Assembly (NCBI GenBank): GCA_965227905.1
Contig: OZ245780.1
Span: 1-40,000, forward strand
Source: Methyloligellaceae bacterium
GTDB taxonomy: Bacteria > Pseudomonadota > Alphaproteobacteria > Rhizobiales > Methyloligellaceae
Length of the DNA stretch: 40,000 bases
Direction of reading: 5' to 3'
The notes beneath the pieces were generated by a model that worked only from the letters and a program-made list of their open reading frames with translations, ran no database searches and was not told the origin of the DNA. The translations under genes were made by a program, and so were the position numbers. Of this stretch, positions 17,771 to 33,575 are shown one piece after another. Each line of letters opens with the position of its first letter. Within the stretch, counting starts at the first letter, position 1.

Positions 17771-17796
17771 AAAAAAATCCCGTTATGAGGGATTTT
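17771..17796 (-). terminator. rho-independent-terminator-like hairpin (orphan)
   Basis: AAATCCC (17775-17781), loop gttatga, GGGATTT (17789-17795). On the minus strand the stem is followed by a run of 7 T (complement of the A-run at 17771-17777). There is no convincing protein gene upstream of it on the minus strand. Confidence 0.35.
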
Positions 17797-18227: not shown

Positions 18228-18794
18228 ATGCTGGACTTTATCTACCAGACGGGCTGGGGCGCATTCACGGTCATGCTGTTCTTTCAGCTCCCTTTCGCGT
18301 TGTTCTTCCTCTACGTGGTGTTTCGGAAATCGGCACCCAATTCCGGTTCGGGAACCGCGGCCGAAGGCAAGATCAACGTCCTGAAATATGTCTGGATGGG
18401 CTCAGTCGTCGTCCTCTTCCTCATAGTCAACATCTTAAGCATTCAGTTCATCCCCGCAGTCTCGACCGCGCGCGCGATCGCGTCGGGTGAGCCCATTCTG
18501 GATGTAGACGTTAAGGCAGAGTCCTGGAGTTATGAGATCTCCAAACGGGAGTTCGATGCCGGCACAGCTGTCCGCTTTAATGTCAAGAGCGTCGACACCG
18601 TGCATGGCTTTGCCGTCTACCATCCCAATGGAAAAATTCTTTTCACCATGATGCTTGTCCCCGGCGTCAAGGACTCTTCGCTTGTCTACAAGTTCAAGGA
18701 TCCGGGGGTCTACAAGGTGCGGTGCCTGGAATATTGCGGCATCGCGCATCATGGAATGTTTGACGAGATAATCGTCAAAGAACGCAGCAGCTAA
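18228..18794 (+). CDS. heme-copper oxidase subunit II (CuA cupredoxin, B-family/ba3-like)
   Basis: AGGGGAGG (18211-18218) lies 9 nt before the ATG at 18228. The product has two N-terminal TM helices followed by a cupredoxin domain. The complete CuA motif is present: VHGFAV...CLEYCGIAHHGM (H...CxExCGxxHxxM). Confidence 0.85.
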   Translation: MLDFIYQTGWGAFTVMLFFQLPFALFFLYVVFRKSAPNSGSGTAAEGKINVLKYVWMGSVVVLFLIVNILSIQFIPAVSTARAIASGEPILDVDVKAESWSYEISKREFDAGTAVRFNVKSVDTVHGFAVYHPNGKILFTMMLVPGVKDSSLVYKFKDPGVYKVRCLEYCGIAHHGMFDEIIVKERSS

Positions 18795-18816
18795 CCGGCG
18801 AGGGGAGGACTCCATC

Positions 18817-20352
18817 ATGTTAGCGGCAACAACCGCCATTCAACGCGTGCCGATATTCGGGCGCATGTTCAAGGTCGACACGAGCACCGGGCTCGAGGAG
18901 CTCAATTCCTGGCCGGCCCTCATGGTCATGTCGGCATTCATCTGGTTGTCGATCGCCATCTTCCTCGGCATCGCCATGCCGATCACCCAGATTTTCGGGC
19001 TGGAAACGAACCTCTATTATCAGGCACTGACGGCCCATGGCGCCGCAATGTCCTTTCCGTTCGTCTTCCAGCTCATGGTCGGCGTCGGCCTTCACCGGGC
19101 CGGCGGCTGCCTTGGCAAGCCGGTGACGGGACCTCTGGTCGCGCTCTTCTATATTTTCATGAATGTGGGCGGCCTGCTGTTCGCCGTTGCGGTCTTGGGC
19201 GGACTGAAGATCAGCTATGCCGTCATGTTCCCCCTTCCCGTCGTCGGCGTTGAGACCGGTCAATGGGATCTGTGGACAGTGATCGTCGGCTTCACCGGCA
19301 TCGCGCTGATCCTGATTTCGGTGATCGTGCTCTATCCGGTCCAGGTCATCAAAATGCTGTTCTTCGATGATGCGCGCGAGGAGTTGGTTCTGTCGCCCCG
19401 CACGCTCAAGGACCCGGGCATGCTGGGCATGGCGATGGCGGCTTTCGTGCTGCTGATCATGGGAACGCCTCTCATCATCGTCGCAAGTGCCGTGTTGCTG
19501 GCCCTCTATGGCATTCTGCCCATGGCGGCCGTCACCTGGGCTGTCGATCCGATGGTGTTCCAGTTCGTGTTCTACATCTTTGCGCACAACCTCATGGAGG
19601 CCATGGCGATCATGGTCATCAGTGCGGTCTATGCGACATTGCCGCTATACCTGGCAGACGGGACACGGAAGCTGTACAGCGACCGCATCGCCAATCTTGC
19701 CCTGTGGATCCTGCTGGTGACGTCGGTCACATCCTTCTTCCACCACTTCTTCACGATGTTCCCGGCGTTGCCTGCGGCTTTGTCCTATCACGGCAACATC
19801 ATGAGTTGGGGTACGGGCGTCGGCGCCGCTCTGACGATCTTTACCGTCGTCGCAACGATCTGGAAGCACGGCATTCGGCCCGAGTCCGGCCTGATGGCGG
19901 TCCTCATGGGCTTCGTGCTCTACATCATGGATGGCGTCAGCGCGATCGTGACTTCGACCGTCGCCTGGTCCTTCCAGCTTCACGGCACCATGTGGCAGTC
20001 GGGGCATACGATGGCGGTGCTCATATCCATGAGCATGATGTGGATCGGGGTGTTCATCCACCACTATCCGGTGATGACGGGCCGAACCCTGAGCAAGACG
20101 ATCGGCAGCTGGTTCGTCGGCCTCTATACGGTCGGCGCCATGGGCCTCGCCTATTCGTTCCTGGCCGCCGGCGCCGCCGGAATGCCGCGGCGCTTTGCGG
20201 AGTGGAACCAGGAAGGCTGGATGATGTATGGCTACATGATCCTGTTCTTCGGGATCTGCCTGCTGGCATCCTTCGTCGTGCTCGGTCTCGATCTGAGGCG
20301 CTCACGCGATATCCCTGCAACGGTGCAAGGCCAGCCTGCACCGGCAGAATAG
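18817..20352 (+). CDS. heme-copper oxidoreductase subunit I, divergent B-family-like
   Basis: 511-aa polytopic protein preceded by the RBS GAGGGGAGGA. YYQALTAHGAAM matches the helix II heme His. FYIFAHNLMEAM matches the CuB His. SFFHHFF matches the CuB HH pair. LHGTMWQSGHTMAV is the helix X region. The segment DPMVFQFVFYIFAHNLMEAMAIMVISAVYATLP aligns, from memory, to Thermus ba3 DPLVARTLFWWTGHPIVYFWLLPAYAIIYTILP. Confidence 0.85.
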   Translation: MLAATTAIQRVPIFGRMFKVDTSTGLEELNSWPALMVMSAFIWLSIAIFLGIAMPITQIFGLETNLYYQALTAHGAAMSFPFVFQLMVGVGLHRAGGCLGKPVTGPLVALFYIFMNVGGLLFAVAVLGGLKISYAVMFPLPVVGVETGQWDLWTVIVGFTGIALILISVIVLYPVQVIKMLFFDDAREELVLSPRTLKDPGMLGMAMAAFVLLIMGTPLIIVASAVLLALYGILPMAAVTWAVDPMVFQFVFYIFAHNLMEAMAIMVISAVYATLPLYLADGTRKLYSDRIANLALWILLVTSVTSFFHHFFTMFPALPAALSYHGNIMSWGTGVGAALTIFTVVATIWKHGIRPESGLMAVLMGFVLYIMDGVSAIVTSTVAWSFQLHGTMWQSGHTMAVLISMSMMWIGVFIHHYPVMTGRTLSKTIGSWFVGLYTVGAMGLAYSFLAAGAAGMPRRFAEWNQEGWMMYGYMILFFGICLLASFVVLGLDLRRSRDIPATVQGQPAPAE

Positions 20353-20372
20353 TTTTATAGGATCGGAAACAA

Positions 20373-20405
20373 GGGGCGGGGCCAACTTCTGGCTCCGCCC
20401 TTTTT
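20373..20405 (+). terminator. rho-independent terminator after the oxidase operon
   Basis: GGGGCGGGGCC (20373-20383), loop aacttct, GGCTCCGCCC (20391-20400, one mismatch), followed by TTTTT (20401-20405). It lies 21 nt after the subunit I stop. Confidence 0.6.
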
Positions 20406-20504
20406 CGTGGGAGCGGCGTCCGACGCTCGAACAATTCCCAGGACTATGATTAGGTGTTGCTGACAAGCGCGTCGTCACAAGGACGCTGAGGGAGACAGAA
20501 CGGC

Positions 20505-21122
20505 ATGATCTACGAAATGCGCACCTACAATTGCGTGCCGGGCAAGGCCCCGGAACTGCTTGAGCGCATCGGCGCGGCTTATGAGCACCGCGCGAAATAT
20601 TCCAAGGCGGCAGGCTTCTGGTACACCGATATCGGACCGCTGCATCAGGTCGTGCATATCTGGCCCTATGAGGACCCCGGCGAGCGCCAGCGCATTCGCG
20701 CCGAAGCGTCAAAGGACGAAAACTGGCCGCCTCATGTCTATGACATTCTGGATAACGCCCAGTCAGACATCTATGTGCCCGCACCGTTCTGTCCGGAGCT
20801 CAAAACAGGCGACCTCGGCCCGATCTATGAAATGCGCATCTACACGTTCAAGCCCGGCAGTTTTGCCGAGGTCGTGAAGCGCTGGGAAGAGGCGCTGGAT
20901 GAACGCCAGAAACTCTCGCCGCTGCTTCTCGCAATGATCAGCGAGAATGGGCCGCTTAACCGGTATGTGCATGTCTGGCCCTATGAGAGCCTGCAGCACC
21001 GCAGCGAGATCCGCGCTGAGGCCGAGGCCAAAGGTGTCTGGCCACCTAAGGGGGCGAGGCAGTTTTCGGTCAGGCAGGAGAACAAGATTCTGTTGCCGGC
21101 ATCTTTTTCTCCATTGCAATAG
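20505..21122 (+). CDS. NIPSNAP family protein (two repeats)
   Basis: MIYEMRTYNCVPGK...GPLHQVVHIWPYEDPGERQRIR is repeated as IYEMRIYTFKPGS...GPLNRYVHVWPYESLQHRSEIR. This is the typical NIPSNAP duplicated dimeric alpha-beta barrel pattern. Confidence 0.8.
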   Translation: MIYEMRTYNCVPGKAPELLERIGAAYEHRAKYSKAAGFWYTDIGPLHQVVHIWPYEDPGERQRIRAEASKDENWPPHVYDILDNAQSDIYVPAPFCPELKTGDLGPIYEMRIYTFKPGSFAEVVKRWEEALDERQKLSPLLLAMISENGPLNRYVHVWPYESLQHRSEIRAEAEAKGVWPPKGARQFSVRQENKILLPASFSPLQ

Positions 21123-21370
21123 GGCGGGTGAGGCGATCTTGCTTATGGCAATTCTTCGTATCTTGCTAGCCTTGCAAGCAGTCACTGTACTAAGCGGACA
21201 TACGAACCTGAGCTAAGCGCTGATGCAAACAAAGCTTCGCAGGACGTTCGTCAAGCTGCATGTCAGTGCCCCAGAGAGCTGATCCCGCAGCGGATCTACT
21301 TTCACGTGATAGTTTCGATCGGAGCCGGTGCTACAACTCACGCTAATACGTTTCAATAGAGGGTAATTCC

Positions 21371-22300
21371 ATGGATTTGGAAGAACGATCGAAAAACCTG
21401 GGTCGCCTATGGTGGATCACGGATGCACCATTATTCGTTGACGAGGTCCTCGTTCGTCGGATCCATGACGCGGTGATTTGGCCCGAATTTGAAGAAGAAT
21501 ATGTCGAGAAAACCAAGTTCAGCAAAGTAACAAGGTCCTTGGAAGGTGCGGCTAAGGCGGAGGGCGAAGGCGAGTTCAAGCTTCCCGAATTGATAGAATG
21601 GCTTAGCCCGAAGCTAATAGCGAAATCGGCCTTGGAGGGCAGCGTTGCGCGGATGAGCGAGGACGAATCGAAAAGCGTCGTCAAAGGCAATCCAGTCGTT
21701 AGCAGCGAGCGCAAATTGAATGATTTGGCCGTTGAGTATCTCTCCGAGTTTCCCGAACGCCTCCTGTTCGTGGATGTTCCGGGCGGTCAGTTTTCAAACT
21801 TCCAGGGAGAAGTAACTCGTGAACAGCTCGACAAACTTCTCGATTCCCCGCCACGACCCGTGGTTTTCGTCAACATTCTGCCAGGAGCGCCGCTCTTTCC
21901 AACCGTGGCGGAAATGGAGGCTGGCGAATTTCGACCGATCTTCCCCGCGCTCGATCGGATATTCTTAGCTAGAGAGAATCCAACTCCACGCTATGACGAT
22001 AGAGACAAGGGCAAACGCAGTGCCTATTGGGCAGCAGTTAGCAAAAACTTCGGATCACGCGTAGCCATGCAGGAGTTGGAAAAGGCCTGTGGTCGTGGCC
22101 GGATTGGTTGGATTGACTTCAGAATTCTGTTCGACAACGAAGGATCTACTGGTCACCTGCACGTTGTTCCAGCCGGCAAAGCCCATGCCGGCATCTTCGG
22201 CTATAATTTCGTTCATAGAGGGCACAAATACGGATGTCGAGTGGTGGCGACACTAAAATCGGGTACCGACATGAATGTCCTCGCAATCTACGAGCGCTAA
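21371..22300 (+). CDS. hypothetical protein (309 aa, no family recognised)
   Basis: ATG start with AGAGGG upstream and a clean 309-codon ORF with protein-like composition (e.g. GRIGWIDFRILFDNEGSTGHLHVVPAGKAHAGIFGYNFVHRGHKYGCRVVATL). Its stop lies 3 nt before the start of the HAD gene, suggesting translational coupling. Confidence 0.6.
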   Translation: MDLEERSKNLGRLWWITDAPLFVDEVLVRRIHDAVIWPEFEEEYVEKTKFSKVTRSLEGAAKAEGEGEFKLPELIEWLSPKLIAKSALEGSVARMSEDESKSVVKGNPVVSSERKLNDLAVEYLSEFPERLLFVDVPGGQFSNFQGEVTREQLDKLLDSPPRPVVFVNILPGAPLFPTVAEMEAGEFRPIFPALDRIFLARENPTPRYDDRDKGKRSAYWAAVSKNFGSRVAMQELEKACGRGRIGWIDFRILFDNEGSTGHLHVVPAGKAHAGIFGYNFVHRGHKYGCRVVATLKSGTDMNVLAIYER

Positions 22301-22303
22301 ACC

Positions 22304-23011
22304 ATGACTCACGGATTGCTAGTTACCGATGCCGACAACACACTCTGGGACACAAACAAAGTTTTCGCCGACGCACAGCTCGAAATCCTCGAACAGATCG
22401 AGATTGAAATCGGGGTACCAACTAATCCCCACGATCGCCTCGCATTTGTACGCCAAATCGATCAAGGCATTGCTCAACGACATGAGGCTGGCCTCAATTA
22501 TCCGCCTGAGCTTCTGGTGAAGGCAATTGTCGAGGCGCTTGGCTCTGCGGCACTGGGGGACAAGAAGATCGATGAAATCGTAGCCTCGTATTTCGATGTC
22601 CTTACAAAAACACCAAGACTACGGCACGGGGTTCGCCGGACCCTGAAGTGGCTGACCAAAGCTGATGTAGAGATCATCGTCGCGAGTGAAGGTGACGAAA
22701 CGCGACTGCGCAATAATCTCGACATGCACAAGCTGGACACAATCGTATCGGATTTGGTCATTGGACGAAAAAATCGTGAGTTTTTCAACGGACTCTTCCA
22801 GCGAAGCGGCGATAGCTACCCGAAGGTCTGCGTCGGTGACCAATTGGATCGGGATATCTTGCCGGCGAACGAAGCAGGCTTCAAAACGCTCTATTTCCCC
22901 GGAGGCTTCCGGCCGTCTTGGGAGTTCGATATGGCCGCTCAGGAAACTGATCGTGTGATAAAATCCTACACCGAAGTCAAAGACGCTTTCGCACTTCGCG
23001 ATGCGGCTTGA
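22304..23011 (+). CDS. HAD-superfamily hydrolase/phosphatase
   Basis: Motif I is LLVTDADNTLWDT (DxDxT). Motif II is IIVASEGD. Motif IV is VGDQLDRDILPANEAGF. The alpha-helical cap between motifs I and II is consistent with HAD subfamily I. Confidence 0.75.
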   Translation: MTHGLLVTDADNTLWDTNKVFADAQLEILEQIEIEIGVPTNPHDRLAFVRQIDQGIAQRHEAGLNYPPELLVKAIVEALGSAALGDKKIDEIVASYFDVLTKTPRLRHGVRRTLKWLTKADVEIIVASEGDETRLRNNLDMHKLDTIVSDLVIGRKNREFFNGLFQRSGDSYPKVCVGDQLDRDILPANEAGFKTLYFPGGFRPSWEFDMAAQETDRVIKSYTEVKDAFALRDAA

Positions 23012-23541
23012 TTGTTCGCAAGCTCGAAATTGTTGATCGATGAGTCGGCCCTTCGCCACCAACCGTCGGTTGACAGCCCTGGGAAAAACGAAATGTCCGC
23101 TTTCCTTATTTCAACGGTATTGGTTGGCGTTTCGATGAGCTCGATTGATGAAACCTCAAAAGGAGCGTTAGCCGCTCCCAAAAAACTCTGGTACTTACAC
23201 AAAAAGAGCGCCGCGAGGCATTCGGTCGACGGATCGCCAGGCGTTACTAAAAGCCTGGATAGTCGCTGAGGCTCGTGGGTTTCGAAATAGTTGATCAAAG
23301 GATCGCGATCTCCCAAATGGAAAGTGTGATCGACGCTATTGTCGATCCAGCGATGCCAGTCCGTTTTGAGATCGGCAAAATCGGCAGCAATGTTCGACTC
23401 AGAGTCCAGGGATTGTCCGCCGATGTAAGAAACCCGTGCTTTGACGATCTCGTTGTGTCCATGGGGAATTTGGCACTTTTCCGATCCGCATTGAAGCAGT
23501 CTGTGAGCCACAGAAAAACGTCGGCTGAAAACAATATCCAT
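22966..23541 (-). CDS. QueD / 6-pyruvoyl-tetrahydropterin synthase family protein (long form, 191 aa)
   Basis: FSVAHRLL...EKCQIPHGHNEIVKARV...DFADLKTDW...VDHTFHLG...PSTECLAALFL...IETPTN aligns motif by motif with E. coli QueD. The corresponding QueD segments are FEAAHRL...KCGRLHGHSF...DFAELK...LDHHYLN...PTSEVLA...KETCT. It is the last gene of the minus-strand operon, and its 3' end overlaps the HAD gene by 46 nt. Confidence 0.75.
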   Translation of the reverse strand: MDIVFSRRFSVAHRLLQCGSEKCQIPHGHNEIVKARVSYIGGQSLDSESNIAADFADLKTDWHRWIDNSVDHTFHLGDRDPLINYFETHEPQRLSRLLVTPGDPSTECLAALFLCKYQSFLGAANAPFEVSSIELIETPTNTVEIRKADISFFPGLSTDGWWRRADSSINNFELANNQAASRSAKASLTSV

Positions 23542-23546
23542 GAGTT

Positions 23547-24563
23547 TTAGTTCTTGCCTATAAATGTTCGGCTAACGTCATTGTGATCGGAACCGCCCAG
23601 AAAATCGATGTATTCTTTGCAGTCGAAACGCTGACCGCAGGCTGTGCATTGAGCCTTCAATTCTACAGTGATTGCGCTTCCTGGTGCGAGACGGGACGTT
23701 TCGACCGAGCCCCCTTCGACGTCTTCAGGGTTCGCCTGAAATACCAACTCGGTCGCACGCAATTTCTGGGCTTGCTTTATGGTCCATTCGAGCGCTGCCT
23801 GAGCGATTGTATCATCAACAGGTATCGCCATAAGACGACGCTCATCTGTCTGTTCATTGACAAAAAATAGAACGCAGCGCGCCGGCAGGTTGCCTGTTCG
23901 TTCCTCGAATAGTTTCGCGTAAGCCACTAATTGTCGGGCATAATCCGTCAAATAGGTGCTATCGGCACGCGCTCCTTTGTAATCCCAGATTTCCCATTCA
24001 TTGGGCTGCGCAAACACAGGCGTCTCTTCAGGAACGCCTGTCAGCGTGTCCAAGTCTTGCCAGCGCCAAGAACGATCGTAAGTAAGAGGCTTTTCCTGCT
24101 GGAGAACCAAGTCAAGCACACCGGTCAGCATAAGGCGCTTCTTGCCTGCGAAATCCTGTGCGATCAACTTTCTGACTGTCCGAATTTCGTATTCGACATG
24201 TTTGGCGCCTTCAATTGCCGCACGAACGATTTCGTCCGGCTGGCCGCCAGGAAACAAATTGTTCTGAACACGACCGAGGATTTCTTTTTTCGAAGTAAAC
24301 GCTGTTCTGACACCACGCGCATACAGCACCCTGTAGTGCTTCTCAAGTTGAGCCTGTAGCGCATCCACATCTGGAAACGCGTCAGTCCGGCGCAATTCGT
24401 TCGCCATCCACTCCATGGCGTGGTGGATGAGTCGCCCCTCCATCGCCTGGATTTGTTCATAGGGATGGAAGCCCGCCAGCTTCTCGAAAGACCAAGCGCG
24501 TGGACAACGCCGATGCGCCAGTATATCGCCGGTATACGAAAATTCGAGAACGTCATTGCTCAT
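23547..24563 (-). CDS. PD-(D/E)XK nuclease with Cas4/AddB-type Fe-S cysteine signature
   Basis: 338 aa. An N-terminal Cys (HRRCPRAW) plus the C-terminal CTACGQRFDC (Cx2Cx5C) form the 4-Cys pattern of Cas4/AddB nucleases. The catalytic core is LTGVLDLV...EIWDYKGAR...YARQLVAYAKLF (D...ExK...QxxxY). The start overlaps the helicase stop by 11 nt. Confidence 0.75.
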   Translation of the reverse strand: MSNDVLEFSYTGDILAHRRCPRAWSFEKLAGFHPYEQIQAMEGRLIHHAMEWMANELRRTDAFPDVDALQAQLEKHYRVLYARGVRTAFTSKKEILGRVQNNLFPGGQPDEIVRAAIEGAKHVEYEIRTVRKLIAQDFAGKKRLMLTGVLDLVLQQEKPLTYDRSWRWQDLDTLTGVPEETPVFAQPNEWEIWDYKGARADSTYLTDYARQLVAYAKLFEERTGNLPARCVLFFVNEQTDERRLMAIPVDDTIAQAALEWTIKQAQKLRATELVFQANPEDVEGGSVETSRLAPGSAITVELKAQCTACGQRFDCKEYIDFLGGSDHNDVSRTFIGKN

Positions 24564-26991
24564 GCCATAACCTGACTTCCACGTCTTCTACATCGGGATG
24601 CTCAGTTGGCGACTGAAATTCAAAGAGAGTCTCTAAGGCCGGATTTGGTGCCATAAATGCTTTTTCCGGATCGACTTCTTGCAAGATCGTCAGTGACTTT
24701 TCAGCGCGGGACATCGCGACGTAAGCTTCGCGTTCGCGGTCGGCCATAGCGAGGTCATTGCAGCTAGGATCAGAGGTGGTGACTGACGTATCTGTCAGTT
24801 CGTATCCCACCCTTTGACCACTGAAGAGCTTGGTCCGGAGCACAGGTCCGAACTCGATTTCACGTCCGATGCCCGTAACAATCACATGATCGAACTCAAG
24901 GCCCTTCGACGTGTGGTGTGTCATCAGTATTACTGCGTCCTGCTCGAAGAATTCGACCTCCTGGTCCTCGGGGTCTTCGTTCTGAACGTATCCACCAAAG
25001 TGATGTAGAAGTTCCCAGTATTGTTTCTGCCATTCTACTTTCCCGCTAACACGCTCGGCGTTAAGCGGTTGATCGAGGGACCGCATCGTCAACCTTGTTG
25101 GGGCGATGTTCGCTTCAAGCAATTGGGTAAACAGTGCCTGACGGAAGAGTTCCATTGTGTAACCAGCGCCACGAAAGAGGGGGTCAGCCAACAATCGCGC
25201 CACCAGACCAGCGATCGTTAAGCGTCCGCCAACACTACTCGCAATGAGATCTTCTCGAATCTGATCAAGCAAATCGGTCAGTCGCTTTCGATCAGGCGTC
25301 GGTTGCCCAATTCGCCCCCCTCCGTCCTTTACAAACTTCTTCTGGCAAGCAATGTGATGCCCATTCATAGGAAAATGTGGATCGGCGGAGTAAGCCGCCG
25401 CCCTTTTGGCCGAACAGGCCGCAGGACTACCCTGATAGCAACTGGCCCATACTTCTACCGACCGATTCGACGCACCCACCCGCTGCTTTGTGACTGGATC
25501 GATGAGATACGACAAAAGGCCAAGCAGCATTGAGACGGGGCTATCACTGTCTGTCGCGGTCTTGCTACTTGTGTTGAATACACGCAAGCCTTCGGCTTCC
25601 ATGGCCTGCCGCAAAACAAAGGCTGGCGAAGGACTGGATCTTTGCCCCGCCTTTTCGCGCGCTGAGAACATGATGACAGCGGCGCTTTCCGGCGAATCTT
25701 CGCGGCCTACTGGTTTTGCAGCAAGTTCCTTCGCTGCCGCTTCGCAAACTGCCCTCCAAGGTCCGGCGAGATGCCGAATTGGCTGATCGTGCGCTGTCGA
25801 CTGACTGTTTGACCGTACAGACTTTGGTAAAGCTAGTTGTCTCAGGACGGTCGCATTCTTGAATGCCTGACAAAAATCTACAATCGTCTTTGTACTGCGA
25901 TAATTCGTTTCGAGGGTTTCGGCCCGATAATTGGTTCCGATATCTTCACAGTGAGGCCGCAGCCCGTGGAAACAATCAATATCCGAGCCTCGGAAACGAT
26001 AAAGCGCCTGATCGTCATCGCCTACGACAGTAAGTTTGCAAGTTGGATTTGTGAGCCAAGCTGTATGGATCGCAAACTGGATTGGATTGCTGTCCTGAAA
26101 TTCGTCAACAAAGATATGATCGAAATGATCGATCATATCGGGCTGCGCATGCAGGAAAACCCGCTGAATGGTAGCGAAGTCCACTACCTTGCCATCAGCA
26201 AGCAAATCCTCCCACCGCGCTGCAAGGTCAATAAGGTCAGTGGTAACGCCAGATACGCCCGGCCGCTTATCGACCCCATTCGGTGTTCCAGCTTGTTCAC
26301 AGCGTGGCGTCCACGTCTCGAAATGCTGTGCAATCATTTCGAGCATAACCTTCGTCAAACGCATTCCCGAAAGCGACAGCGTGTTGTCCTCCCACGGCTT
26401 GGTGAATAGCGCGAGAAATTCACCCCTACGCAATAAGCGAGTGACCGGGCCGGTATTGTCTTTGCCTAGCGAGTAATGACTGCGGTTCATCCTCGCAAAA
26501 GTTTCGGCCTGGTCCATCATTGTCCGACCGTCTTCGCGGTAAGCATCATTGTGGTCCACAAGGATCTGTTCACAGAGGCTATGGATAGTGCCGATGTGAA
26601 CGTTGTGGATTTGAGGATCTCGAACCGCGATCCCAAGCTGCTTAGCTTCTCTTTGAAGGGCTTCCGCACGCTCTGAAGCGCGAATGATAAGCTCAGTAGC
26701 CGCGCGCTTCGTGAATGTCGTGACAATAATCCGTCCTGGATTGGCGCCCGCCACCATTAGATCATAGAGCAAACGCCAGACGATCATTTCTGTTTTGCCG
26801 GAACCAGGGCCAGCGAGAATTTGAAGGACGCGATCAGATGAATCAACACCAATAATCCGCCGCTGCACGCCGTCTTCTGGTAAACGGTCTCGGCCATTCG
26901 CCTGCAACACTGCGTCGACCACTGCGAAATATTGCGCCGGTTGAAGTAGTGCGGACTCTGCGAGCGGGTTGCTTGGTGAATTAGTTGTCAT
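24553..26991 (-). CDS. UvrD/Rep/PcrA-type SF1 DNA helicase
   Basis: 812 aa with a full motif set. Motif I is LAGPGSGKTE, Ia is TTFTKRAATEL, II is FVDEFQDSNPIQ and III is VVGDDDQALYRFRGS. Motif IV is TNYRST, V is HHTSKGLEFDHVIV and VI is AYVAMSRAEKSL. Confidence 0.9.
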   Translation of the reverse strand: MTTNSPSNPLAESALLQPAQYFAVVDAVLQANGRDRLPEDGVQRRIIGVDSSDRVLQILAGPGSGKTEMIVWRLLYDLMVAGANPGRIIVTTFTKRAATELIIRASERAEALQREAKQLGIAVRDPQIHNVHIGTIHSLCEQILVDHNDAYREDGRTMMDQAETFARMNRSHYSLGKDNTGPVTRLLRRGEFLALFTKPWEDNTLSLSGMRLTKVMLEMIAQHFETWTPRCEQAGTPNGVDKRPGVSGVTTDLIDLAARWEDLLADGKVVDFATIQRVFLHAQPDMIDHFDHIFVDEFQDSNPIQFAIHTAWLTNPTCKLTVVGDDDQALYRFRGSDIDCFHGLRPHCEDIGTNYRAETLETNYRSTKTIVDFCQAFKNATVLRQLALPKSVRSNSQSTAHDQPIRHLAGPWRAVCEAAAKELAAKPVGREDSPESAAVIMFSAREKAGQRSSPSPAFVLRQAMEAEGLRVFNTSSKTATDSDSPVSMLLGLLSYLIDPVTKQRVGASNRSVEVWASCYQGSPAACSAKRAAAYSADPHFPMNGHHIACQKKFVKDGGGRIGQPTPDRKRLTDLLDQIREDLIASSVGGRLTIAGLVARLLADPLFRGAGYTMELFRQALFTQLLEANIAPTRLTMRSLDQPLNAERVSGKVEWQKQYWELLHHFGGYVQNEDPEDQEVEFFEQDAVILMTHHTSKGLEFDHVIVTGIGREIEFGPVLRTKLFSGQRVGYELTDTSVTTSDPSCNDLAMADREREAYVAMSRAEKSLTILQEVDPEKAFMAPNPALETLFEFQSPTEHPDVEDVEVRLWHEQ

Positions 26992-27020
26992 CCCTGTACG
27001 TCATCCACTAGCAGCAGACA

Positions 27021-28736
27021 TTAGCAATTCGACGCCTTACCTCTGACCAGCGTAAAAAGCTTCCAAGTGTTGTGTGTCCCACGACGCTTGTTTCGATTCG
27101 ATCCGCGGAAAATCAATACGTCGATCCCCGATTTCTTGCAGACTGGGCAAGGGCAATGTTCCCACGGCCGATCTTTGAGAGTGCGCTCATAGCGGGCAGC
27201 GACTTTAGATGGATCCTCGCTAGAACGATCGAGCTTGCTGTCATACTCAATGACTGCAGACAGGGTCGCTCTCAAAGACACTCGGCGTTTCCCATAACCA
27301 TGAAGCGCATCAAGCGCCGCCGCCTCCAGGGCTGCAAGTTTGCAGAGATCGTGCCCCGCCTCTAGAAGGGTATTTCGGGTGCGACCGTCAGAAGTCATCG
27401 GAACGCGGATCGCCGCATACCATGCCCCATTATCTGCGAGATAGTTTTGCTCAGACCGAAGCCATGCTTTGCGGAAATATGTGGCGCTGTCGAAGCTTGT
27501 AACGCCAAGGCTGCGAAACTGTGCCTGTAGCTTTGGCCGAAACACGCCGAAAAGGTGAACGTCGGGTGGGTTCCTGCGTTGCTTTAGCGACGCCATCGTT
27601 GATGAAACGATATCAAAGACGACATCATCGGGAAGCGGGACTAATCCCCCAAGTGCTATGCGTTTATACCCCATAGCGGCATAGAGGTTGGCGTTCTCGA
27701 CATATTGGTCTGTGTTGAGCCCTTGCACCGTTCCGACTGGAACGAAACCCGCCTTGCGACGCTTAGCAGCCGCTAAGAACGCGGCAGCATTTTCTACGGT
27801 GATCTCTATTCGCCGCTGCCGTTCCTGTTTCGACAGCTGCACCTTCTCGTTACCCACGCGAATTGCTGGCACCGGAATGTGGTCAACACTCGCGCCGAAA
27901 TCAAAATTATAGAGATCGTAGAGGCTAGTGGCGTAATCGACGCTAATTGGCGGCTTTTCCTCGTCAACATAGGAGAAGGCGCCACAATCACCGAAGAGAG
28001 CCTGTGTTCGATTGAGCCCGTAGTGAGCTCTGAGGTCGATCGGCCGCATGGTTCGCGCTTCCAGCCCACCGACATATTTTAGCGGTCCTTTAGCTTCGCG
28101 CTTCTGAGCCAGACTGACAAGAATTCCATCGGCAATTTTGTAGGGGCGCATTAGGCGCGCGCAGTGGATGTCTGTTCGTTCGGATTTGGGTCCGGAAAAC
28201 TGATCCGCCACAAAGTCGAATTCAGGATCAATCAGATCATCCCAATCCGGCAGAAAATACTGAAGCCGCCCTTTCGGCTGACTGTTGAAGGCTTGCCGTT
28301 CTGAAGCATTGCTCGACCGGAGATAAGAACCAAGTTGCTGGCGCTTGATACCGATTGGCCCCTTGAAGAGATCCACTTTGCCGGATTGCTCGAGGTATGT
28401 TGTTGGCAGGGCCGCAAGGTAGTCTTTTCCCAGACAAAGATTAATCCGATCATAGGAGTTAAGCCATGACGCCGCTTCCACGCTGATTTCAGGCGCGAGT
28501 TCGCTGGCCCGCTCTGCCGTCATCCGCCTATCATAGTCGGCGATGTCGGTAAGCGCGCCGATCATCCCATATTGGGCGGAGAGCACAGCAACATCGAGAT
28601 CTTTTGGCCAATAATGTGTGCGAAGGCGCGAGCGAAAATCCTGGTAGAGCGGGCCGTCATACCGATGAACGGCTGGCGTTTCCCCTGCTGTTTTTGTCTT
28701 GCGGCTTGAGCAGCCGAGCACCAGTAGTTCCGACAT
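27021..28736 (-). CDS. fusion protein: N-terminal uncharacterised domain (~190 aa) + C-terminal tRNA-guanine-transglycosylase-like (DpdA-like) domain
   Basis: The C-terminal ~370 aa carry TGT/DpdA-like landmarks: LFGDCGAFSY, FGASVDHIP, RIALGGLVP and VTSFDSATY. A terminal Zn motif is also present, CPCPVCKK...GTHN (CxCxxC...H). The N-terminal part (LLVLGCSSRKTKTAGETPAVHRYDGPLYQ...VLSAQYGMIG...ADYDRRMT) was not placed in a named family. The RBS GAGGTG lies 7 nt upstream of the ATG at 28736. Confidence 0.7.
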   Translation of the reverse strand: MSELLVLGCSSRKTKTAGETPAVHRYDGPLYQDFRSRLRTHYWPKDLDVAVLSAQYGMIGALTDIADYDRRMTAERASELAPEISVEAASWLNSYDRINLCLGKDYLAALPTTYLEQSGKVDLFKGPIGIKRQQLGSYLRSSNASERQAFNSQPKGRLQYFLPDWDDLIDPEFDFVADQFSGPKSERTDIHCARLMRPYKIADGILVSLAQKREAKGPLKYVGGLEARTMRPIDLRAHYGLNRTQALFGDCGAFSYVDEEKPPISVDYATSLYDLYNFDFGASVDHIPVPAIRVGNEKVQLSKQERQRRIEITVENAAAFLAAAKRRKAGFVPVGTVQGLNTDQYVENANLYAAMGYKRIALGGLVPLPDDVVFDIVSSTMASLKQRRNPPDVHLFGVFRPKLQAQFRSLGVTSFDSATYFRKAWLRSEQNYLADNGAWYAAIRVPMTSDGRTRNTLLEAGHDLCKLAALEAAALDALHGYGKRRVSLRATLSAVIEYDSKLDRSSEDPSKVAARYERTLKDRPWEHCPCPVCKKSGIDVLIFRGSNRNKRRGTHNTWKLFTLVRGKASNC

Positions 28737-28842
28737 TCAAACACCTCAACATGCAAGTAACGAGAATATATATGATGCAATCTCCTTTTACGAGATCCGA
28801 TCTGCACTACATTAAAACTTTCTGCTAAATGTACGCGCTACT

Positions 28843-29067
28843 TCAGATTGTCGCAGGTACAAATATTCCAACCTCTGATTCGCCGTGCAAACTATTGTCG
28901 TCACCCCAAATGAGCTGCGAACCGAAACATATGCCCGCGATCTGATTTTTGGTTCTGCAGACCACATTGGGCTCAAAACAGCAATCGGGATGAGCCAACA
29001 GCAGGATTCCATGCTGGAAAAATGAAAGATGGCTGTCAAAGCCATAGCGATAGCCAAGGCGCAGCAT
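28843..29067 (-). CDS. hypothetical small protein or 5'-truncated gene remnant
   Basis: The ORF-track version (28843..29418) would overlap the opposite-strand MobC-like gene by >160 nt. It also has no in-frame ATG/GTG/TTG between 29364 and 29067. The only non-overlapping start is the ATG at 29067 (MLRLGYRYGFDSHLSFFQHGILLLAHPDCCFEPNVV...). No family was recognised and there is no clear RBS. Confidence 0.2.
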   Translation of the reverse strand: MLRLGYRYGFDSHLSFFQHGILLLAHPDCCFEPNVVCRTKNQIAGICFGSQLIWGDDNSLHGESEVGIFVPATI

Positions 29068-29228
29068 TTGATTCCGGATGGATACGGCAGCCGCTAGGAC
29101 TCTATTGATCCGAATTGGCGCGCCCGGGAGGAGAAAGTTCGAACGAGATTTTTGACACTCTTGAACAATGGAATAAGCAGTTAAAGGCTGAAAGTATCCA
29201 AATCGAACAGCGCTCCAAGCAAGTTCGT

Positions 29229-29248
29229 GGACCGCACCGCAGCGGTCC
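29229..29248. promoter_or_regulatory. perfect 7-bp inverted repeat immediately upstream of the mobC-like gene (candidate oriT arm or operator)
   Basis: GGACCGC (29229-29235), loop accgca, GCGGTCC (29242-29248), ending 6 nt before the ATG at 29255. MOBQ-type oriTs usually lie next to the mob genes and contain such a repeat, but no nic consensus was recognised. Confidence 0.25.
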
Positions 29249-29254
29249 GTCGAT

Positions 29255-29686
29255 ATGAGTTCTCCCTCGGATTCGGGGGAGCTAAAAGAACAATTCGAAG
29301 CAGCAAACGGCAGCGCAAAACGGTTAAAACGCCGGAAGCGTCCCCCACCACTATCGATCCGCATTTCCGATGAGGAGCGCGCGCAGCTCAAGAAAGACGC
29401 TAAGGGCGGATCGCTCAATGCCTATGTACGTGAACGTTTGTTCAAGAGTCGTGCAAAGCCCAAACTCCCTGTCAAACAACAACAGGCGCTTGTGCGTGCG
29501 TTGAGCCGATTGGGCAAGAGTGGAATTACCCGATTCCTTGAAAACCTGAAGCGTGCCCATGAGGACGGGCGCATTACTTTGTCCGACTTCGGCCTTGGGC
29601 AGCTTGAGAGTATCCTCACGGACTGTGAGGCCGTTCGCCATGATTTGATTGTCGCTCTTGGCGTTGATCCAGCAGACGACGCATGA
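29255..29686 (+). CDS. MobC-like relaxosome accessory protein (ribbon-helix-helix)
   Basis: 143 aa. RKRPPPLSIRISDEERAQLKKDAKGGSLNAYVRERLF is an RHH/MobC-type N-terminal segment. The stop overlaps the relaxase start by 4 nt (ATGA). Confidence 0.6.
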   Translation: MSSPSDSGELKEQFEAANGSAKRLKRRKRPPPLSIRISDEERAQLKKDAKGGSLNAYVRERLFKSRAKPKLPVKQQQALVRALSRLGKSGITRFLENLKRAHEDGRITLSDFGLGQLESILTDCEAVRHDLIVALGVDPADDA

Positions 29687-30987
29687 TTTTGGTCGGCAAC
29701 CAGCGTGGCGGCGGCAAAGACTTGGCGGCTCATTTGATGAAGTCGGAAAACGAAAACGTGGAGGTCTATGACATTCGCGGCTTTGTCGGAAACACGTTGC
29801 GCGCAGCTTTCCAAGAATCCTATGCCATGAGCAAAGGAACCCAGAGGTGCAAGCAGCATTTGTTCTCGCTCAGTTTGTCGCCCCCGATTGACGCCGAAGT
29901 GAGCGTCAATCATTTCCTCTCCGCCATAGAACGCGCTGAGAAACGCCTTGGTCTGTCAGGGCAGCCAAGGGCTATCGTATTTCATGAGAAATTTGGAGAG
30001 GACGGCAGGCTTCGCCGCCATGCCCATTCAGTGTGGTGCAGGATCAATACCGATGAAATGAAATCTGTTCATCTGCCTTTCACCAAAAGAATACTGATGG
30101 ATTTGACGCGCGAGCTTTTCATCGAGCACGGCTGGAAAATGCCGCGCGGATTGTTGAACAAGCAAGACCGCAGTCCGCTCAACTTCACGCTTGCGGAATG
30201 GCAGCAGGCTAAACGTGCCGGGAAAAAACCTCGGGAAGTAAAGCGCATCTTTCAGGACGCATGGGCGTTGTCGGACTCAAAGACCTCCTTCGCCGCCGCC
30301 CTCAAAGAGCAAGGCTATATTTTGGCGCAAGGAGACAGGCGCGGCTTTGTCGCCGTGGACTATCAGGGTGAAAAATTTGCTGTTGCACGCGCTGTTGGCA
30401 TCAAGACCAAACAGGTACGTGCGCGCCTTGGAGAACCGGAAGACCTGCCAAGCATTGAGAAGGCGCAAACCGAGGCTGCTGAAATGATGGCAGAGCGGAT
30501 CAAGGCGTTACAAAGCGATCAGGCAAGCACCTATGTGGAGGAGCATGAGCGGCTCAAGGCAGGCCTCGAAAAGCTCAGGAATCGTCATGCGTCTCAACGC
30601 AGGAGGTTGGCTGATCGACAGGCTGCACACAGGGTCTTGGAAAGGGCAACCAACACGTCACGCCTGAGAACAGGCTTGCTTGGCCTTTGGGACCGTCTAA
30701 CCGGAAGACGACGGAAAATCTTACAGCAGATTTACGATGCAGAGGCAGATGCACACAGGCGCGACAAGCGCGAACGGGACGCAATGCTCAGGCAGCAAGC
30801 CGAATTGCTTGACCTTGCGCAAAGACAACAAGAGGCCGCTCAAGGGAGAAATGCCCAAATTCAAACTGAGCTGTCAGCAGATATCGCCTCTATGTTCGAA
30901 AATGCTGCATCGCGCGAAGACAAAAAACCCAAAAGACGAAGGCGTCAGCAAAGGCGCAGAGAGCAACGACGCGATCCCAACCGCTAA
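29683..30987 (+). CDS. relaxase/mobilisation nuclease (MobA/VirD2-family, MOBQ-like)
   Basis: The N-terminal relaxase domain shows MILVGNQRGGGKDLAAHLMK..., ...HLFSLSLSPP... and the His-cluster RRHAHSVWCRI. The C-terminal half is a coiled-coil-like, Arg/Gln-rich region ending in a basic tail, KKPKRRRRQQRRREQRR. Confidence 0.8.
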   Translation: MILVGNQRGGGKDLAAHLMKSENENVEVYDIRGFVGNTLRAAFQESYAMSKGTQRCKQHLFSLSLSPPIDAEVSVNHFLSAIERAEKRLGLSGQPRAIVFHEKFGEDGRLRRHAHSVWCRINTDEMKSVHLPFTKRILMDLTRELFIEHGWKMPRGLLNKQDRSPLNFTLAEWQQAKRAGKKPREVKRIFQDAWALSDSKTSFAAALKEQGYILAQGDRRGFVAVDYQGEKFAVARAVGIKTKQVRARLGEPEDLPSIEKAQTEAAEMMAERIKALQSDQASTYVEEHERLKAGLEKLRNRHASQRRRLADRQAAHRVLERATNTSRLRTGLLGLWDRLTGRRRKILQQIYDAEADAHRRDKRERDAMLRQQAELLDLAQRQQEAAQGRNAQIQTELSADIASMFENAASREDKKPKRRRRQQRRREQRRDPNR

Positions 30988-31057
30988 TTGCGCGCCCGTT
31001 TAGTTGGGCATCGCCTTGCCTTGCGCAAGCTCTTATATTTCGGGATTTCCTGATCTG

Positions 31058-31186
31058 AATGCCTGATTTTTCGGAGCCACCTCCGCCCGGAAACAGGTGG
31101 CTTCGACAAATCCGGCATGGCCTGATTTTTTGGAAAACCTTCAATAAGAAGACCATACCAAGAAGCCCATCCGATGGATCGGATGG
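31058..31186. repeat. cluster of direct and inverted repeats downstream of the relaxase gene
   Basis: GCCTGATTTTT occurs twice (31061-31071 and 31120-31130). The two copies flank the hairpin GCCACCT-ccgcccggaaac-AGGTGGC (31076-31101). A 20-bp palindrome, CCATCCGAT-gg-ATCGGATGG, lies at 31167-31186. Confidence 0.4.
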
Positions 31187-31441
31187 TCAATCATCCCTGC
31201 ATCAGGGGGCGTTACCCGACTGGGCCGAAACCGCCAAACGCGGGTTCGGTGGAGCTTGGTCCGGACGCTGTCCGGGGCTAGCGCAATAGCACCCGCCCGG
31301 ATGCCATTCATTGCACCCCAAGAAATCTCACTTTGAAGGCAAGCGATGAAGTAGGAGATACCCTCGATGTTTATTCTAGCCATGCTTGGGCTGGCATAGG
31401 TTACATTTGGTCCGTTCGTTGAAGCGGTTTTGGAAATTGTG

Positions 31442-32554
31442 ATGGCAAAGGTAGAAAATGTTTACGCAGGCTTGTTGATCCAATCGGATCGAATACGGCT
31501 CACTTTTGGGTCTGTCAGCTCAGATTCATCGCCCGCACCGGAAGTTGGCCCACGATACGTTGAAGCAGCGTATGGTGGGAACTATGACGCAGAGGCAAAA
31601 TTGACAAAGACAAATCGAGACAAACTGCTTGCCGATTTCGGTGAACGTATTTGCCAGTTTCCGCATGACGTAACAGGAGTTGGTGTCGCGTGCTACGGGC
31701 CGATTATCTCGGTTAGCTTGGAAGACAAGATGCGAGCGAAACGAGGCTACGGGAGAATTTCCGACAAGTCGTCTCACCGCACGCTGGCGGGGTTCGATGT
31801 TTATACCGTGCTAACGGAGGCGTTAGAAGATCATAGACGACGGTTACCAATCGTCATCCAGACGGATGTCAGTTGCGGTGCCGTTCACCAGGCACATATG
31901 CGATCGTTTCGCGGGTTTGGTTTAGAAGGCAATTACCGACGCCATAGATTGCGTGACGTCCTTGCATTCGTCCATCTCGCGGAAGGCGTGGGCGGCAGTT
32001 TCGTCCAGGGCTTCGAACCCTGGATTGGCGCTCTTCATTGCGAGATGGGTTATGTAGCAGCTCAGCCAATTGCTGCAGATTCGTGGGGTAAGAAGATATA
32101 CCCGAAAAGACGGATGAACCAATCACCGGTTTTCATCGAGAGACTTGTTTCGATTTCAAGCGTGCTAGGGCGCAGTGGAGCTAAGACACTTGCAGCCGTG
32201 CCGGTCGAAGATTGGGAATACACATCATCCTATATTGCGCAGCTGTGCTCTGCCATTACGACCATGATCGGACCGCACCAGATCATACTTGGAGGCAGGC
32301 TAGTCGATGAAGCGCGCGATGAAGATGGTTCACCTCTCGACATTGTGGAAATGGTGAAGGAGAGATTTTCGATGTGGTTGGATGCTGGTGAAGGCAAAGG
32401 CAGCTACATTTATTACGGACCGCTGGAAGAAATCGAGAGCTACATTGATGGAATCAGAGGTGTAGACGGTGAGAGCGATCGCGCAGCAAGAAGCATGATG
32501 GCAGGTGCCATCCTGGTTGCGAGCCGCTCCTGTGAGTTAGATGCCCAGACCTAA
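31442..32554 (+). CDS. ROK-family / ASKHA-fold kinase-like protein
   Basis: GVGVACYGPI, IQTDVSCGAV, LAEGVGGSFVQGFEPWIGALHCEMGYV and GPHQIILGGRL parallel the ROK signature blocks (GiGi.GpvD, ndan.aa, G.GiGgg...G...G..G.aGEiGH, P..ivlGGg). The ROK Cys/Zn motif was not seen. The ATG at 31442 is preferred, since the ORF-track start at 31430 is TTG. Confidence 0.55.
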   Translation: MAKVENVYAGLLIQSDRIRLTFGSVSSDSSPAPEVGPRYVEAAYGGNYDAEAKLTKTNRDKLLADFGERICQFPHDVTGVGVACYGPIISVSLEDKMRAKRGYGRISDKSSHRTLAGFDVYTVLTEALEDHRRRLPIVIQTDVSCGAVHQAHMRSFRGFGLEGNYRRHRLRDVLAFVHLAEGVGGSFVQGFEPWIGALHCEMGYVAAQPIAADSWGKKIYPKRRMNQSPVFIERLVSISSVLGRSGAKTLAAVPVEDWEYTSSYIAQLCSAITTMIGPHQIILGGRLVDEARDEDGSPLDIVEMVKERFSMWLDAGEGKGSYIYYGPLEEIESYIDGIRGVDGESDRAARSMMAGAILVASRSCELDAQT

Positions 32555-33575
32555 ACCAACGACGAATGGAAACACTGAGGCACCATCAAATCGGCGCATG
32601 GTAGAGTCTCAAAATCGATCCCCCCTCGTCCGTGCGCCTGGTACCTCACATCCTGTTAAAGCGGAAGTGGACCCTCCCGGCGACGATCGGCTTGAAGAAG
32701 ACATTATCGAATCCCTCAAAGATGCTGTTCAGTTTGCTATAGGCAGGGAGCGTGCAGAAGAGTTTGCTGCCATGGAATTTTTTGGCCGCAGCCTATCACA
32801 TCAACGAAATTCTCTTTGCCTGAATCGTGCCCTTCGTCTAGGCAGCCACCATAGAGCAGATGCAATCATAGAACGCCTGCTGGATGCTGGTCTTGTGCAA
32901 CAACCGACATCTAGTGACCACCCTCAAATAAACATTTCAGGATTCGATAACTGGCATTCAGAGTATTTTTCCAAATTATCACGCGATGAAATTCTTTATT
33001 TGAAATTATTCCATCATTTATATTATTATTATATTAAATATAAAAAATATTTAGAGGAGTCATTGAGGGATCGAATTATTGCAGTATTGGATGAGCTTGG
33101 CACGGATGACCAGCTTCAGGTGGCGTTTGAGGCAGTAACGGCTGTTCGGGACAGCCAGTCATATGCAATATTGGGATGCGCCGACCCGGACGGCATTAAC
33201 TGGTCTAGGGTTCCCCAAGTACCTCTGCCCGATAAGGCCCCCGAACATTACCGGGGGCATCGTGTTGATGGGGACATCATCGCCTTTTTGAATCGCGTCT
33301 ATGGCCCGGCGGGTCCGGATCACCCCACGCGCCCCAATCATCCGGGCTGGCTTGATGGTAAGAGCATGGGGCGAGAAGACTTAGCCCGCCTCGATCCGAA
33401 GGGGCGAAAGCGACTTAAGACGGTCGAGGGCAAGTCGGGTCGCATTCCTGATGACATCCTCAACCTGCCAGACTATGTCACAATTCAAGACCGTCGAGAC
33501 GAACCGGCTGAGAGAGAGCGTAGGGCCACCATTCGCAAAGCCCGAGCGTATCAACGCAGCATGGCTAAGGACTGA
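32541..33575 (+). CDS. hypothetical protein (344 aa) containing an extremely AT-rich, Tyr/Lys-rich internal segment
   Basis: ATG start that overlaps the ROK-like gene by 14 nt. The 344-codon frame is uninterrupted and no family was recognised. The central segment reads LYLKLFHHLYYYYIKYKKYLEE. Confidence 0.5.
   Translation: MPRPKPTTNGNTEAPSNRRMVESQNRSPLVRAPGTSHPVKAEVDPPGDDRLEEDIIESLKDAVQFAIGRERAEEFAAMEFFGRSLSHQRNSLCLNRALRLGSHHRADAIIERLLDAGLVQQPTSSDHPQINISGFDNWHSEYFSKLSRDEILYLKLFHHLYYYYIKYKKYLEESLRDRIIAVLDELGTDDQLQVAFEAVTAVRDSQSYAILGCADPDGINWSRVPQVPLPDKAPEHYRGHRVDGDIIAFLNRVYGPAGPDHPTRPNHPGWLDGKSMGREDLARLDPKGRKRLKTVEGKSGRIPDDILNLPDYVTIQDRRDEPAERERRATIRKARAYQRSMAKD

Follow-up and report, generated by a model that had tools for sequence, protein, structure and literature searches.

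What does a compact set of genes that couples a DNA base-exchange enzyme to a helicase and a nuclease do for the bacterium that carries it? The question is raised by the window analyzed here, the full 40,000-nt stretch of contig OZ245780.1 from a Methyloligellaceae bacterium, in which four minus-strand open reading frames (ORFs) are packed as one operon: 27021-28736 (571 aa), 24553-26991 (812 aa), 23547-24563 (338 aa) and 22966-23541 (191 aa), joined by a 29-nt gap, an 11-nt overlap and a 5-nt gap. An original prediction had described these genes as a candidate DNA modification or defence system. The packing, the junctions and the motifs that it quoted are all present in the ORF list and translations, and profile searches upheld its four family assignments with scores far above those expected by chance (DpdA 343 bits, PF00580 138, PDDEXK_1 47 and PTPS 65). 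Our own conclusion, held with moderate confidence, is that the locus is a minimal restriction-modification (R-M) system of the Dpd type, carried by a six-gene mobile unit (21369-28736). It would represent a widespread short form of the bacterial Dpd system that is apparently undescribed. The idea of a separate kind of system did not hold, the locus being a variant of Dpd; the adjective "undescribed" agrees with the accessible literature, in which we found no paper on this arrangement, although an earlier mention in the founding Dpd papers is possible. The genes and domains of the unit are given below, with residue numbers, here and throughout, referring to the window proteins:

28272..28736, minus strand: DUF6884 domain (DpdC-type, YaaA-like fold), residues 1-155 of the 571-aa fusion protein, from motifs, Pfam and model
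27051..28274, minus strand: DpdA (DNA-guanine transglycosylase) domain, residues 155-562 of the fusion, from NF041059, PADLOC and 7UI4
24553..26991, minus strand: SF1A UvrD-type helicase, 812 aa (PF00580 138 bits, UvrD_C 47 bits)
23547..24563, minus strand: RecB-family PD-(D/E)XK nuclease, 338 aa, with a Cas4/AddB-type four-Cys Fe-S site (PDDEXK_1 47 bits)
22966..23541, minus strand: QueD-like CPH4 synthase paralogue, 191 aa (PTPS 65 bits)
22304..23011, plus strand: HAD-family hydrolase (HAD Pfam matches), inside a DNA block common to the window and its closest relative, L005
21371..22300, plus strand: 309-aa protein, partner of the HAD gene, inside the unit

The larger part of the 571-aa protein matches the DpdA equivalog NF041059 with 343.3 bits against a cut-off of 200 (E=1.7e-102), residues 158-560 covering model positions 1-399 of 406, and the PADLOC DpdA model gives the fusion protein 325 bits. 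The motifs GDCGAFSY, LGGLVPLP, TSFDSATY and CPCPVC...H all lie in this part. The structure of Salmonella Montevideo DpdA (7UI4) aligns end to end with residues 155-562 (E=5e-70), and it is also the best Foldseek match in the PDB (E=5.8e-34, TM 0.85) of an AlphaFold2 (AF2) model of the fusion that was built from an alignment (pLDDT 92.2, pTM 0.90); a single-sequence AlphaFold run (pLDDT 36.5) was set aside. The transglycosylase TIM-barrel that had been claimed for this domain is thus borne out by the model and its match to 7UI4. Asp95, Asp130 and Asp256, whose roles in the S. Montevideo enzyme have been described (PMC10164549), correspond to D250, D285 and D416, all of them invariant in an alignment of 114 sequences. 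In the same alignment G363-364 (Gly206-207 of the S. Montevideo enzyme) are invariant or nearly so; of the zinc ligands, C528 and C530 never vary, and conservation of C533 and H555 reaches at least 90%. His181 of S. Montevideo DpdA corresponds to Gln338, conserved to at least 90%; glutamine is typical of tRNA-guanine transglycosylases. By these matches the C-terminal part is a genuine DpdA of the bacterial type, recognized at the equivalog level.

The N-terminal ~155 residues, which the original prediction treated simply as part of a fusion and left unassigned, hold C9SSRK13 and L52SAQYG57. Both stretches are invariant or nearly so across the 114 sequences, and they are the CxxxK and LSAxxG motifs that define the DUF6884 family (PMC11701544). 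DUF6884 is the Pfam domain detected in dpdC (PMC11888242), whose product was originally placed in DUF328/YaaA (PMC5699537, PMC12839542) and converts dPreQ0-DNA to dADG-DNA (PMC10164549). Pfam DUF6884 (PF21818) gives the window protein 22.7 bits, short of its gathering score of 30; stand-alone DUF6884 orthologs score 39-55 bits, and PF21818 is present in the precomputed annotation of most homologs of the fusion. The N-terminal part of the AF2 model matches phage DUF6884/YaaA-like proteins (best E 1e-9, highest TM 0.68), and a PDB sequence search with the profile of this domain found nothing. For comparison, authentic DpdCs from an Enterobacter and a Sinorhizobium plasmid, which score 470 and 287 bits on the PADLOC DpdC models, score 23.6 and 29 bits on DUF6884 and also match the DUF6884-type model PDC-M57A. 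These two proteins and the DpdC of L088, one of a series of comparison loci (designated L; ORFs were called and clustered in each, and recurrent clusters annotated), carry TCTNGK, TCTNRK or TCTSRK followed by SAGLG or SAGYG. Furthermore, in L074 (a Thermoplasmata archaeon), L075 and L077 a ~150-aa DUF6884 protein and a ~418-aa DpdA are encoded by separate genes of a helicase-nuclease operon, in the order DUF6884, UvrD, PDDEXK, DpdA in L077; the separate DUF6884 modules of L074 and L077, the two scanned, score 50-55 bits. Because of the motifs shared with DpdC and these separate-gene forms, the earlier statement that no DpdC could be recognized was wrong, and the 571-aa protein is, from its sequence, a DpdC-like::DpdA fusion.

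Two side observations concern this family. In the plasmid records L081 and L082 the annotated DpdC coding sequences (11076-11927 and 6065-6886) begin ~36 residues inside the PADLOC DpdC models, and the in-frame sequence upstream holds the TCTNxK (CxxxK) motif; the annotated starts are probably too far downstream. In addition, stand-alone DUF6884 proteins with ~30% identity to the N-terminal domain occur in the Burkholderia phages KS14, FLC10 and CEP1; two of these proteins lie at:

HM461982.1, 5937-6359: stand-alone phage DUF6884
LC667452.1, 23286-23741: stand-alone phage DUF6884

The DpdA part has no match in these phage records, so the DUF6884 enzyme appears to act outside DpdA systems too.

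The 812-aa protein carries the helicase motifs AGPGSGKT, DEFQD, VGDDDQALYRFRG, NYRS, SKGLEFD and YVAMSRA, and the residues of Walker A, DExQ and motifs III, IV, V and VI are at least 90% conserved among 66 family members; residues ~380-675 have no family assignment. Its best score on the named equivalogs (UvrD, PcrA, Rep, AddA and RecB) is 120 bits, against cut-offs of 650-1700. Because all SF1A motifs are present and the equivalog scores fall far short, this helicase is assigned to a separate SF1A subfamily. In the nuclease, C20...C306xxC309x5C315 accompanies D151, D194-Y-K196 and Q211xxxY215; among 69 members the four cysteines are 97% conserved and the remaining residues at least 90%. Judged by these residues, helicase and nuclease both look active. 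PADLOC-DB v2 has no dedicated model for either protein, and a PDB sequence search with the nuclease found nothing. Candidate assignments to known systems were rejected. The Cas4 score is 21-22 bits (TIGR00372 cut-off 65), with no cas-gene match among the window genes scanned, and the only features common to the window nuclease and Cas4 are the four-Cys Fe-S site and the RecB nuclease motifs. Gabija GajB models match partially at best (at most 113 bits, residues ~257-381) and GajA has no match; PADLOC matches to DRT and Druantia are partial or low, with their partner genes absent.

How constant is this gene set? The fusion architecture has more than 1000 matching protein clusters, the best 120 of which are nearly all full length, and a scan of one genome per species gave 76 distinct loci in ~20 phyla, plus one archaeon. 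A UvrD-type helicase and a PD-(D/E)XK nuclease occur together in 54 of the 60 loci with at least 5 kb on both sides of the fusion (the well-flanked set), again over ~20 phyla, and in 51/66 loci the helicase gene comes immediately after the fusion gene, on the same strand. Thus, of the four-gene co-occurrence that had been predicted, the part that stands is the recurrence of fusion, helicase and nuclease in the same order; QueD is only accessory. A HerA ATPase (PADLOC HerA 259 bits) with a 644-aa partner, which has no Pfam or PADLOC match, follows the fusion gene in ten loci: it is inserted between fusion and UvrD in six (L014, L021, L022, L027, L030 and L037) and replaces the UvrD/nuclease pair in four (L038, L061, L062 and L066). 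Either the helicase-nuclease pair or the HerA pair is present in 56/60 well-flanked loci. Neighbours of the sister loci include a type IIG R-M system, HmaA (Hma), TIR-SIR2, integrases and relaxases, TrwC among them. No full-length copy of the fusion turned up in 72,556 plasmids or in 50,697 phage genomes. Most carriers belong to uncultured lineages, which is probably why the system has been overlooked so far; cultured ones include Pelotomaculum terephthalicicum JT, Ammonifex thiophilus SR, Desulfothermobacter acidiphilus 3408-1, Planctomycetales bacterium 10988 and Syntrophus gentianae.

The limits of the unit, and the relation between its parts, emerge from comparison with L005 (Marinicaulis sp.), the closest relative. 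DNA similarity between the two is confined to positions 21369-23541 and 27063-28736 of the window; neither the flanks nor the segment between the two shared blocks shows a DNA match. For this reason we take the transferred unit to be six genes, wider than the originally proposed 22966-28736 since it includes the HAD and 309-aa genes. Within it the fusion is 90% identical to its L005 counterpart, the 309-aa protein 81%, the HAD protein 77% and the QueD-like protein 76%, but the helicases share 27% identity and the nucleases are barely alignable. The exchanged segment is:

Window 23542-27062, L005 11675-15598: replaced helicase-nuclease segment, zero DNA similarity left

Conversely, the fusion of L011 is only 52% identical to that of the window, yet its cassette matches (helicase 46%, nuclease 54%). 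These identities indicate that helicase and nuclease form a cassette that can be exchanged and varies independently of the writer, and the swap suggests that the modules communicate via DNA and not through a co-adapted interface.

This behaviour bears on a reading in which the locus only modifies DNA, the helicase, perhaps with the nuclease, replacing DpdB and opening DNA for the fused DpdA; the mark might then be an epigenetic signal, protect the island or host from nucleases, or be a self-mark for a separate restriction module. Canonical DpdA requires DpdB, for which its authors suggested a helicase-like role (PMC10164549), and three DpdB queries found no DpdB in any of the 79 fusion loci. 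In the window itself no gene has a DndB Pfam match, in agreement with the original prediction that a ParB-like DpdB is missing. Phage DpdAs, however, need no DpdB (PMC10516641), and a swap without co-variation of the fusion is contrary to a tight complex of writer and helper. The subfamily of the window nuclease comprises 381 clusters, and all six sampled members adjoin a DpdA gene, four of them with the fusion (L086, L087, L089 and L090) and two, L088 and L091, with unfused DpdA + DpdB modules that carry preQ0 genes and, in L088, also DpdC. In these two loci the helicase-nuclease pair occupies the usual place of dpdD-K. Because DpdB is present there, the helicase cannot be only a DpdB replacement. 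Nor does a conserved, catalytically intact Fe-S nuclease have an obvious role in base exchange. One locus points the other way: in L068 the trio of fusion, helicase and nuclease adjoins DpdD, DpdK and DpdJ, as a DpdABC-type modification module would. We regard a modification-only machine as possible, though clearly less probable than a minimal R-M system. L068 (Dehalococcoidia, 9158-21663) reads YhhQ, fusion, UvrD, PDDEXK and QueC, then the DpdD, DpdK and DpdJ homologs, and is the only one of the 79 loci with such homologs near the fusion; either the compact and canonical Dpd forms are combined here in a hybrid, or one writer serves two effector modules.

The two plus-strand genes of the unit tie it further to canonical Dpd clusters. 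The HAD gene and the QueD-like gene converge, the former reaching 46 nt into the 3' end of the latter. The HAD product is 37% identical (E=4e-51) to the HAD protein that ends the Sinorhizobium dpdB-dpdA-dpdB-queE-queD-queC-VUT cluster, and HAD genes are also found in the canonical Dpd clusters L083, L084 and L091 and in the fusion loci L085, L087 and L089. The 309-aa protein has no Pfam, NCBIfam or PADLOC match and belongs to a small family of 31 clusters; its gene adjoins the core in 10 fusion loci. In L083 and L084 a 309-aa homolog followed by HAD lies between the preQ0 genes and DpdE/F/G/H, and in L091 a 336-aa ORF, a candidate counterpart of the 309-aa gene, followed by HAD takes the same position. 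The 309-aa + HAD pair also stands beside the fusion systems L085 and L086, the L086 homolog of the 309-aa protein being 33% identical (E=3e-46). The pairs are located as follows:

Window 21371-23011: ~310-aa + HAD pair
L083 9001-10814: ~310-aa + HAD pair
L084 9001-10781: ~310-aa + HAD pair
L091 9165-10954: 336-aa ORF (candidate counterpart) + HAD pair

The 298-aa protein that precedes HAD in the Sinorhizobium cluster was rejected as a homolog of the 309-aa protein, being PycTM-like; in L082 and L089 a PycTM-like membrane protein likewise partners HAD. HAD and the 309-aa protein are general accessory genes of DpdA systems, and as far as we found the pair apparently has no name in Dpd nomenclature.

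A helicase with an Fe-S RecB-type nuclease resembles AddAB/AdnAB, and the locus could on that account be housekeeping machinery for repair or recombination, an AddAB-like end-processing pair with a base-exchange enzyme for damaged guanines. YaaA and YfjM relatives have been connected with oxidative stress and with lesions in DNA, conservation of the fusion is high, and some loci are chromosomal, adjoining purine genes or MutM. Such a function would nevertheless be hard to reconcile with a sporadic distribution over ~20 phyla on islands with integrases, relaxases and defence genes, or with transfer of the unit as a block between unrelated flanks, and it leaves the link to preQ0 genes unexplained. 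We consider it very unlikely.

That link is seen in the window as the QueD-like protein. Its active-site motif is C23QIPH27GH29, and H13, C23, H27, H29, D71, H72 and E137 align with ordinary QueDs; it also carries a ~20-aa insertion and 45 extra residues at the C terminus, and scores 52.3 bits on the QueD equivalog TIGR03367, short of the cut-off of 89.25. A PDB sequence search with it found nothing. Among the 60 well-flanked loci QueC is present in 11, QueD in 9 and a Vut_1/YhhQ transporter in 7, so that at least one preQ0 supply gene occurs in 22. QueE was not found near any of the 79 fusion loci. QueD is thus an accessory preQ0-supply gene, interchangeable with QueC or the YhhQ transporter, and not the core operon member that it had been taken for; a pterin-linked modification, also suggested originally, finds no support, as the accessory genes all indicate preQ0. 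The recurrent linkage to QueC, QueD and YhhQ genes argues that the system consumes preQ0. Such consumption is at odds with a defence against phages whose DNA carries 7-deazaguanines, in which the transglycosylase-like domain would recognize or excise the modified base and the helicase-nuclease degrade the genome. Glycosylase-based defences against 7-deazaguanine phages do exist (bioRxiv 10.1101/2025.10.29.685425), one DUF6884 member binds abasic lesions (PMC11701544), and the intermediate of the transglycosylase reaction is covalent and abasic-like. The DpdA equivalog score and the complete base-exchange active site, however, also count against such a defence, and we judge this possibility improbable.

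Together, these observations provide the basis for a model of a minimal R-M system. By homology, the DpdA domain would exchange guanine in double-stranded DNA for preQ0 by way of a covalent Asp416-deoxyribose intermediate, with Asp250 as the general acid/base; this chemistry has been demonstrated only for Salmonella DpdA, in experiments with DpdA, DpdB and DpdC (PMC10164549). The fused DUF6884 domain, a shortened DpdC, would then act on the inserted base in DNA, the most likely step being hydration of the dPreQ0 nitrile to the amide dADG by Cys9/Lys13. PreQ0 would come from the host queuosine pathway, boosted here by the QueD paralogue and in sister loci by QueC or the YhhQ importer. Helicase and Fe-S nuclease would form an ATP-driven translocating nuclease that degrades DNA without the mark. 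Reading of the mark might, as one possibility, depend on the fusion protein, which could sit at unmodified target sites and recruit the helicase-nuclease. A restriction or effector role is the best reading of the cassette because of the defence neighbours and the intact nuclease.

Several points weigh against this model. Modification and restriction are both predicted, from sequence and gene context. The similarity of the fused domain to DpdC is remote (hhalign E ~1e-3, probability 16-23%; PADLOC DpdC model E=0.038 only), and with ~155 aa against ~300 it aligns only with the N-terminal ~140 residues of DpdC; from a half-length domain the product could be dPreQ0 or another derivative. No mark-reading domain was recognized in the proteins of the locus. 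Canonical DpdA requires the DpdB ATPase (PMC10164549), which is absent here; the helicase might substitute, and DpdB would be dispensable only in the fused form. The DpdD/K/J homologs beside the L068 trio would be redundant if the trio already restricts. Finally, the fusion is ~50% identical across phyla, which is unusually conserved for a defence gene, and some fusion loci lie among housekeeping genes. A further reading is that the system is no ordinary R-M pair, which we think unlikely, if less so than repair or an attack on modified phages. In that case the product of the shortened DUF6884 domain may be a 7-deazaguanine derivative other than dADG. The fusion may instead stall or be covalently trapped at unmodified guanines of invading DNA and so load the helicase-nuclease; a writer-sensor fusion of this kind, if true, would be a base-exchange enzyme serving as a non-self detector. 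In a related scheme the marks could be Chi-like stop signals for an AddAB-like degrader.

The surroundings of the unit in the window are those of a mobile island. The G+C fraction falls from ~0.59 to ~0.52 near position 21000 and stays low through the window end. No Rfam family, preQ1 riboswitches included, was found in 20500-31500, and there are no tRNA genes in the window. The other features are:

29255-30987: NikA-like protein and MobA/VirD2 relaxase, from profile matches
31430-36995, plus strand: ROK-like protein, 344-aa protein without an assigned family, OKR_DC_1 decarboxylase and tRNA-synt_2 protein resembling lysyl-tRNA synthetase (LysRS)
37220-38549, plus strand: ShosA (241 bits) and ShosT (74 bits), forming a ShosTA defence system
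38662-39912, minus strand: PD-Lambda-2_B homolog (Peptidase_M78, 381 bits), at the window edge, where partner genes would fall outside

The low G+C, NikA and the relaxase, with known defence genes adjacent, make the mobilizable island of the original prediction reasonable, and ShosTA and PD-Lambda-2_B bear out its placing of the operon among defence-like genes. The 31430-36995 cluster sits between the relaxase and ShosTA; its decarboxylase is pyridoxal phosphate-dependent and its tRNA-synt_2 protein a class II LysRS-like one, and PADLOC has no match for any of its proteins.

The compact form matters in several ways. Canonical Dpd has eleven genes, with a restriction half that is still poorly understood, and a three-gene core would be a far more tractable model for the writing and reading of 7-deazaguanine marks in DNA. 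The sequences suggest that a DpdA joined to a DpdC-type domain can carry out base exchange without DpdB, and within the DUF6884/DpdC family the CxxxK motif gains a testable catalytic assignment. Two accessory genes, HAD and the 309-aa gene, are pointed out as shared with canonical Dpd clusters. The GATOR-GC rule requires dpdA+dpdB (PMC11888242); pipelines that demand these two genes or the full dpd set would miss the compact form, which is present in at least 76 species-level genomes of ~20 phyla.

How, then, does the compact form compare with known systems? With the Dpd system (dpdA-K) of Salmonella Montevideo and others it shares the DpdA fold and catalytic residues, a module of the DpdC family (DUF6884), the QueC/QueD/YhhQ supply genes, the HAD and 309-aa accessories and the genomic-island setting. 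It differs in that its DpdC-type module is half-length and fused to DpdA, and in that a cassette of UvrD-type helicase and Fe-S PD-(D/E)XK nuclease replaces DpdD-K, so that the core has three genes and not eleven. DpdB is missing from the fusion loci and DpdD-K from the window, and the mismatch to the canonical dpdA-K layout noted in the original prediction is therefore real. The phage cassettes, in which DpdA1-4 occur with FolE/QueD/QueE/QueC, likewise have DpdA without DpdB and a linkage to preQ0 genes. The window protein, in contrast, is a bacterial-type DpdA, not found at full length among the phage genomes searched, and is coupled to a helicase-nuclease and not to a full preQ0 pathway; moreover, the phage cassettes counter host restriction, whereas the window system appears to be host defence. 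AddAB, AdnAB and Cas4 between them combine an SF1A UvrD-type motor with a RecB-family nuclease bearing the C...Cx2Cx5C Fe-S site. Here, however, two small proteins supply motor and nuclease separately, their scores fall well short of the AddA, RecB and Cas4 cut-offs, and the pair is dedicated to DpdA loci, as in every sampled case, with no CRISPR or recombination-gene context. Finally, BREX-related capture (BRC) systems with TGT/GNAT modules (PMC12839542) resemble the window system in having a DpdA-like tRNA-guanine transglycosylase (TGT) homolog without DpdB or DpdC, accompanied by other effectors, and in their HerA-type translocases, which are found in a variant of the window system. The BRC core consists of PglZ, a BrxC-like ATPase, a STAND NTPase and HerA, the TGT being an optional addition (PMC12839542), whereas the compact Dpd form is built on an invariant DpdA core fused to a DpdC-type domain, with UvrD and PD-(D/E)XK partners.

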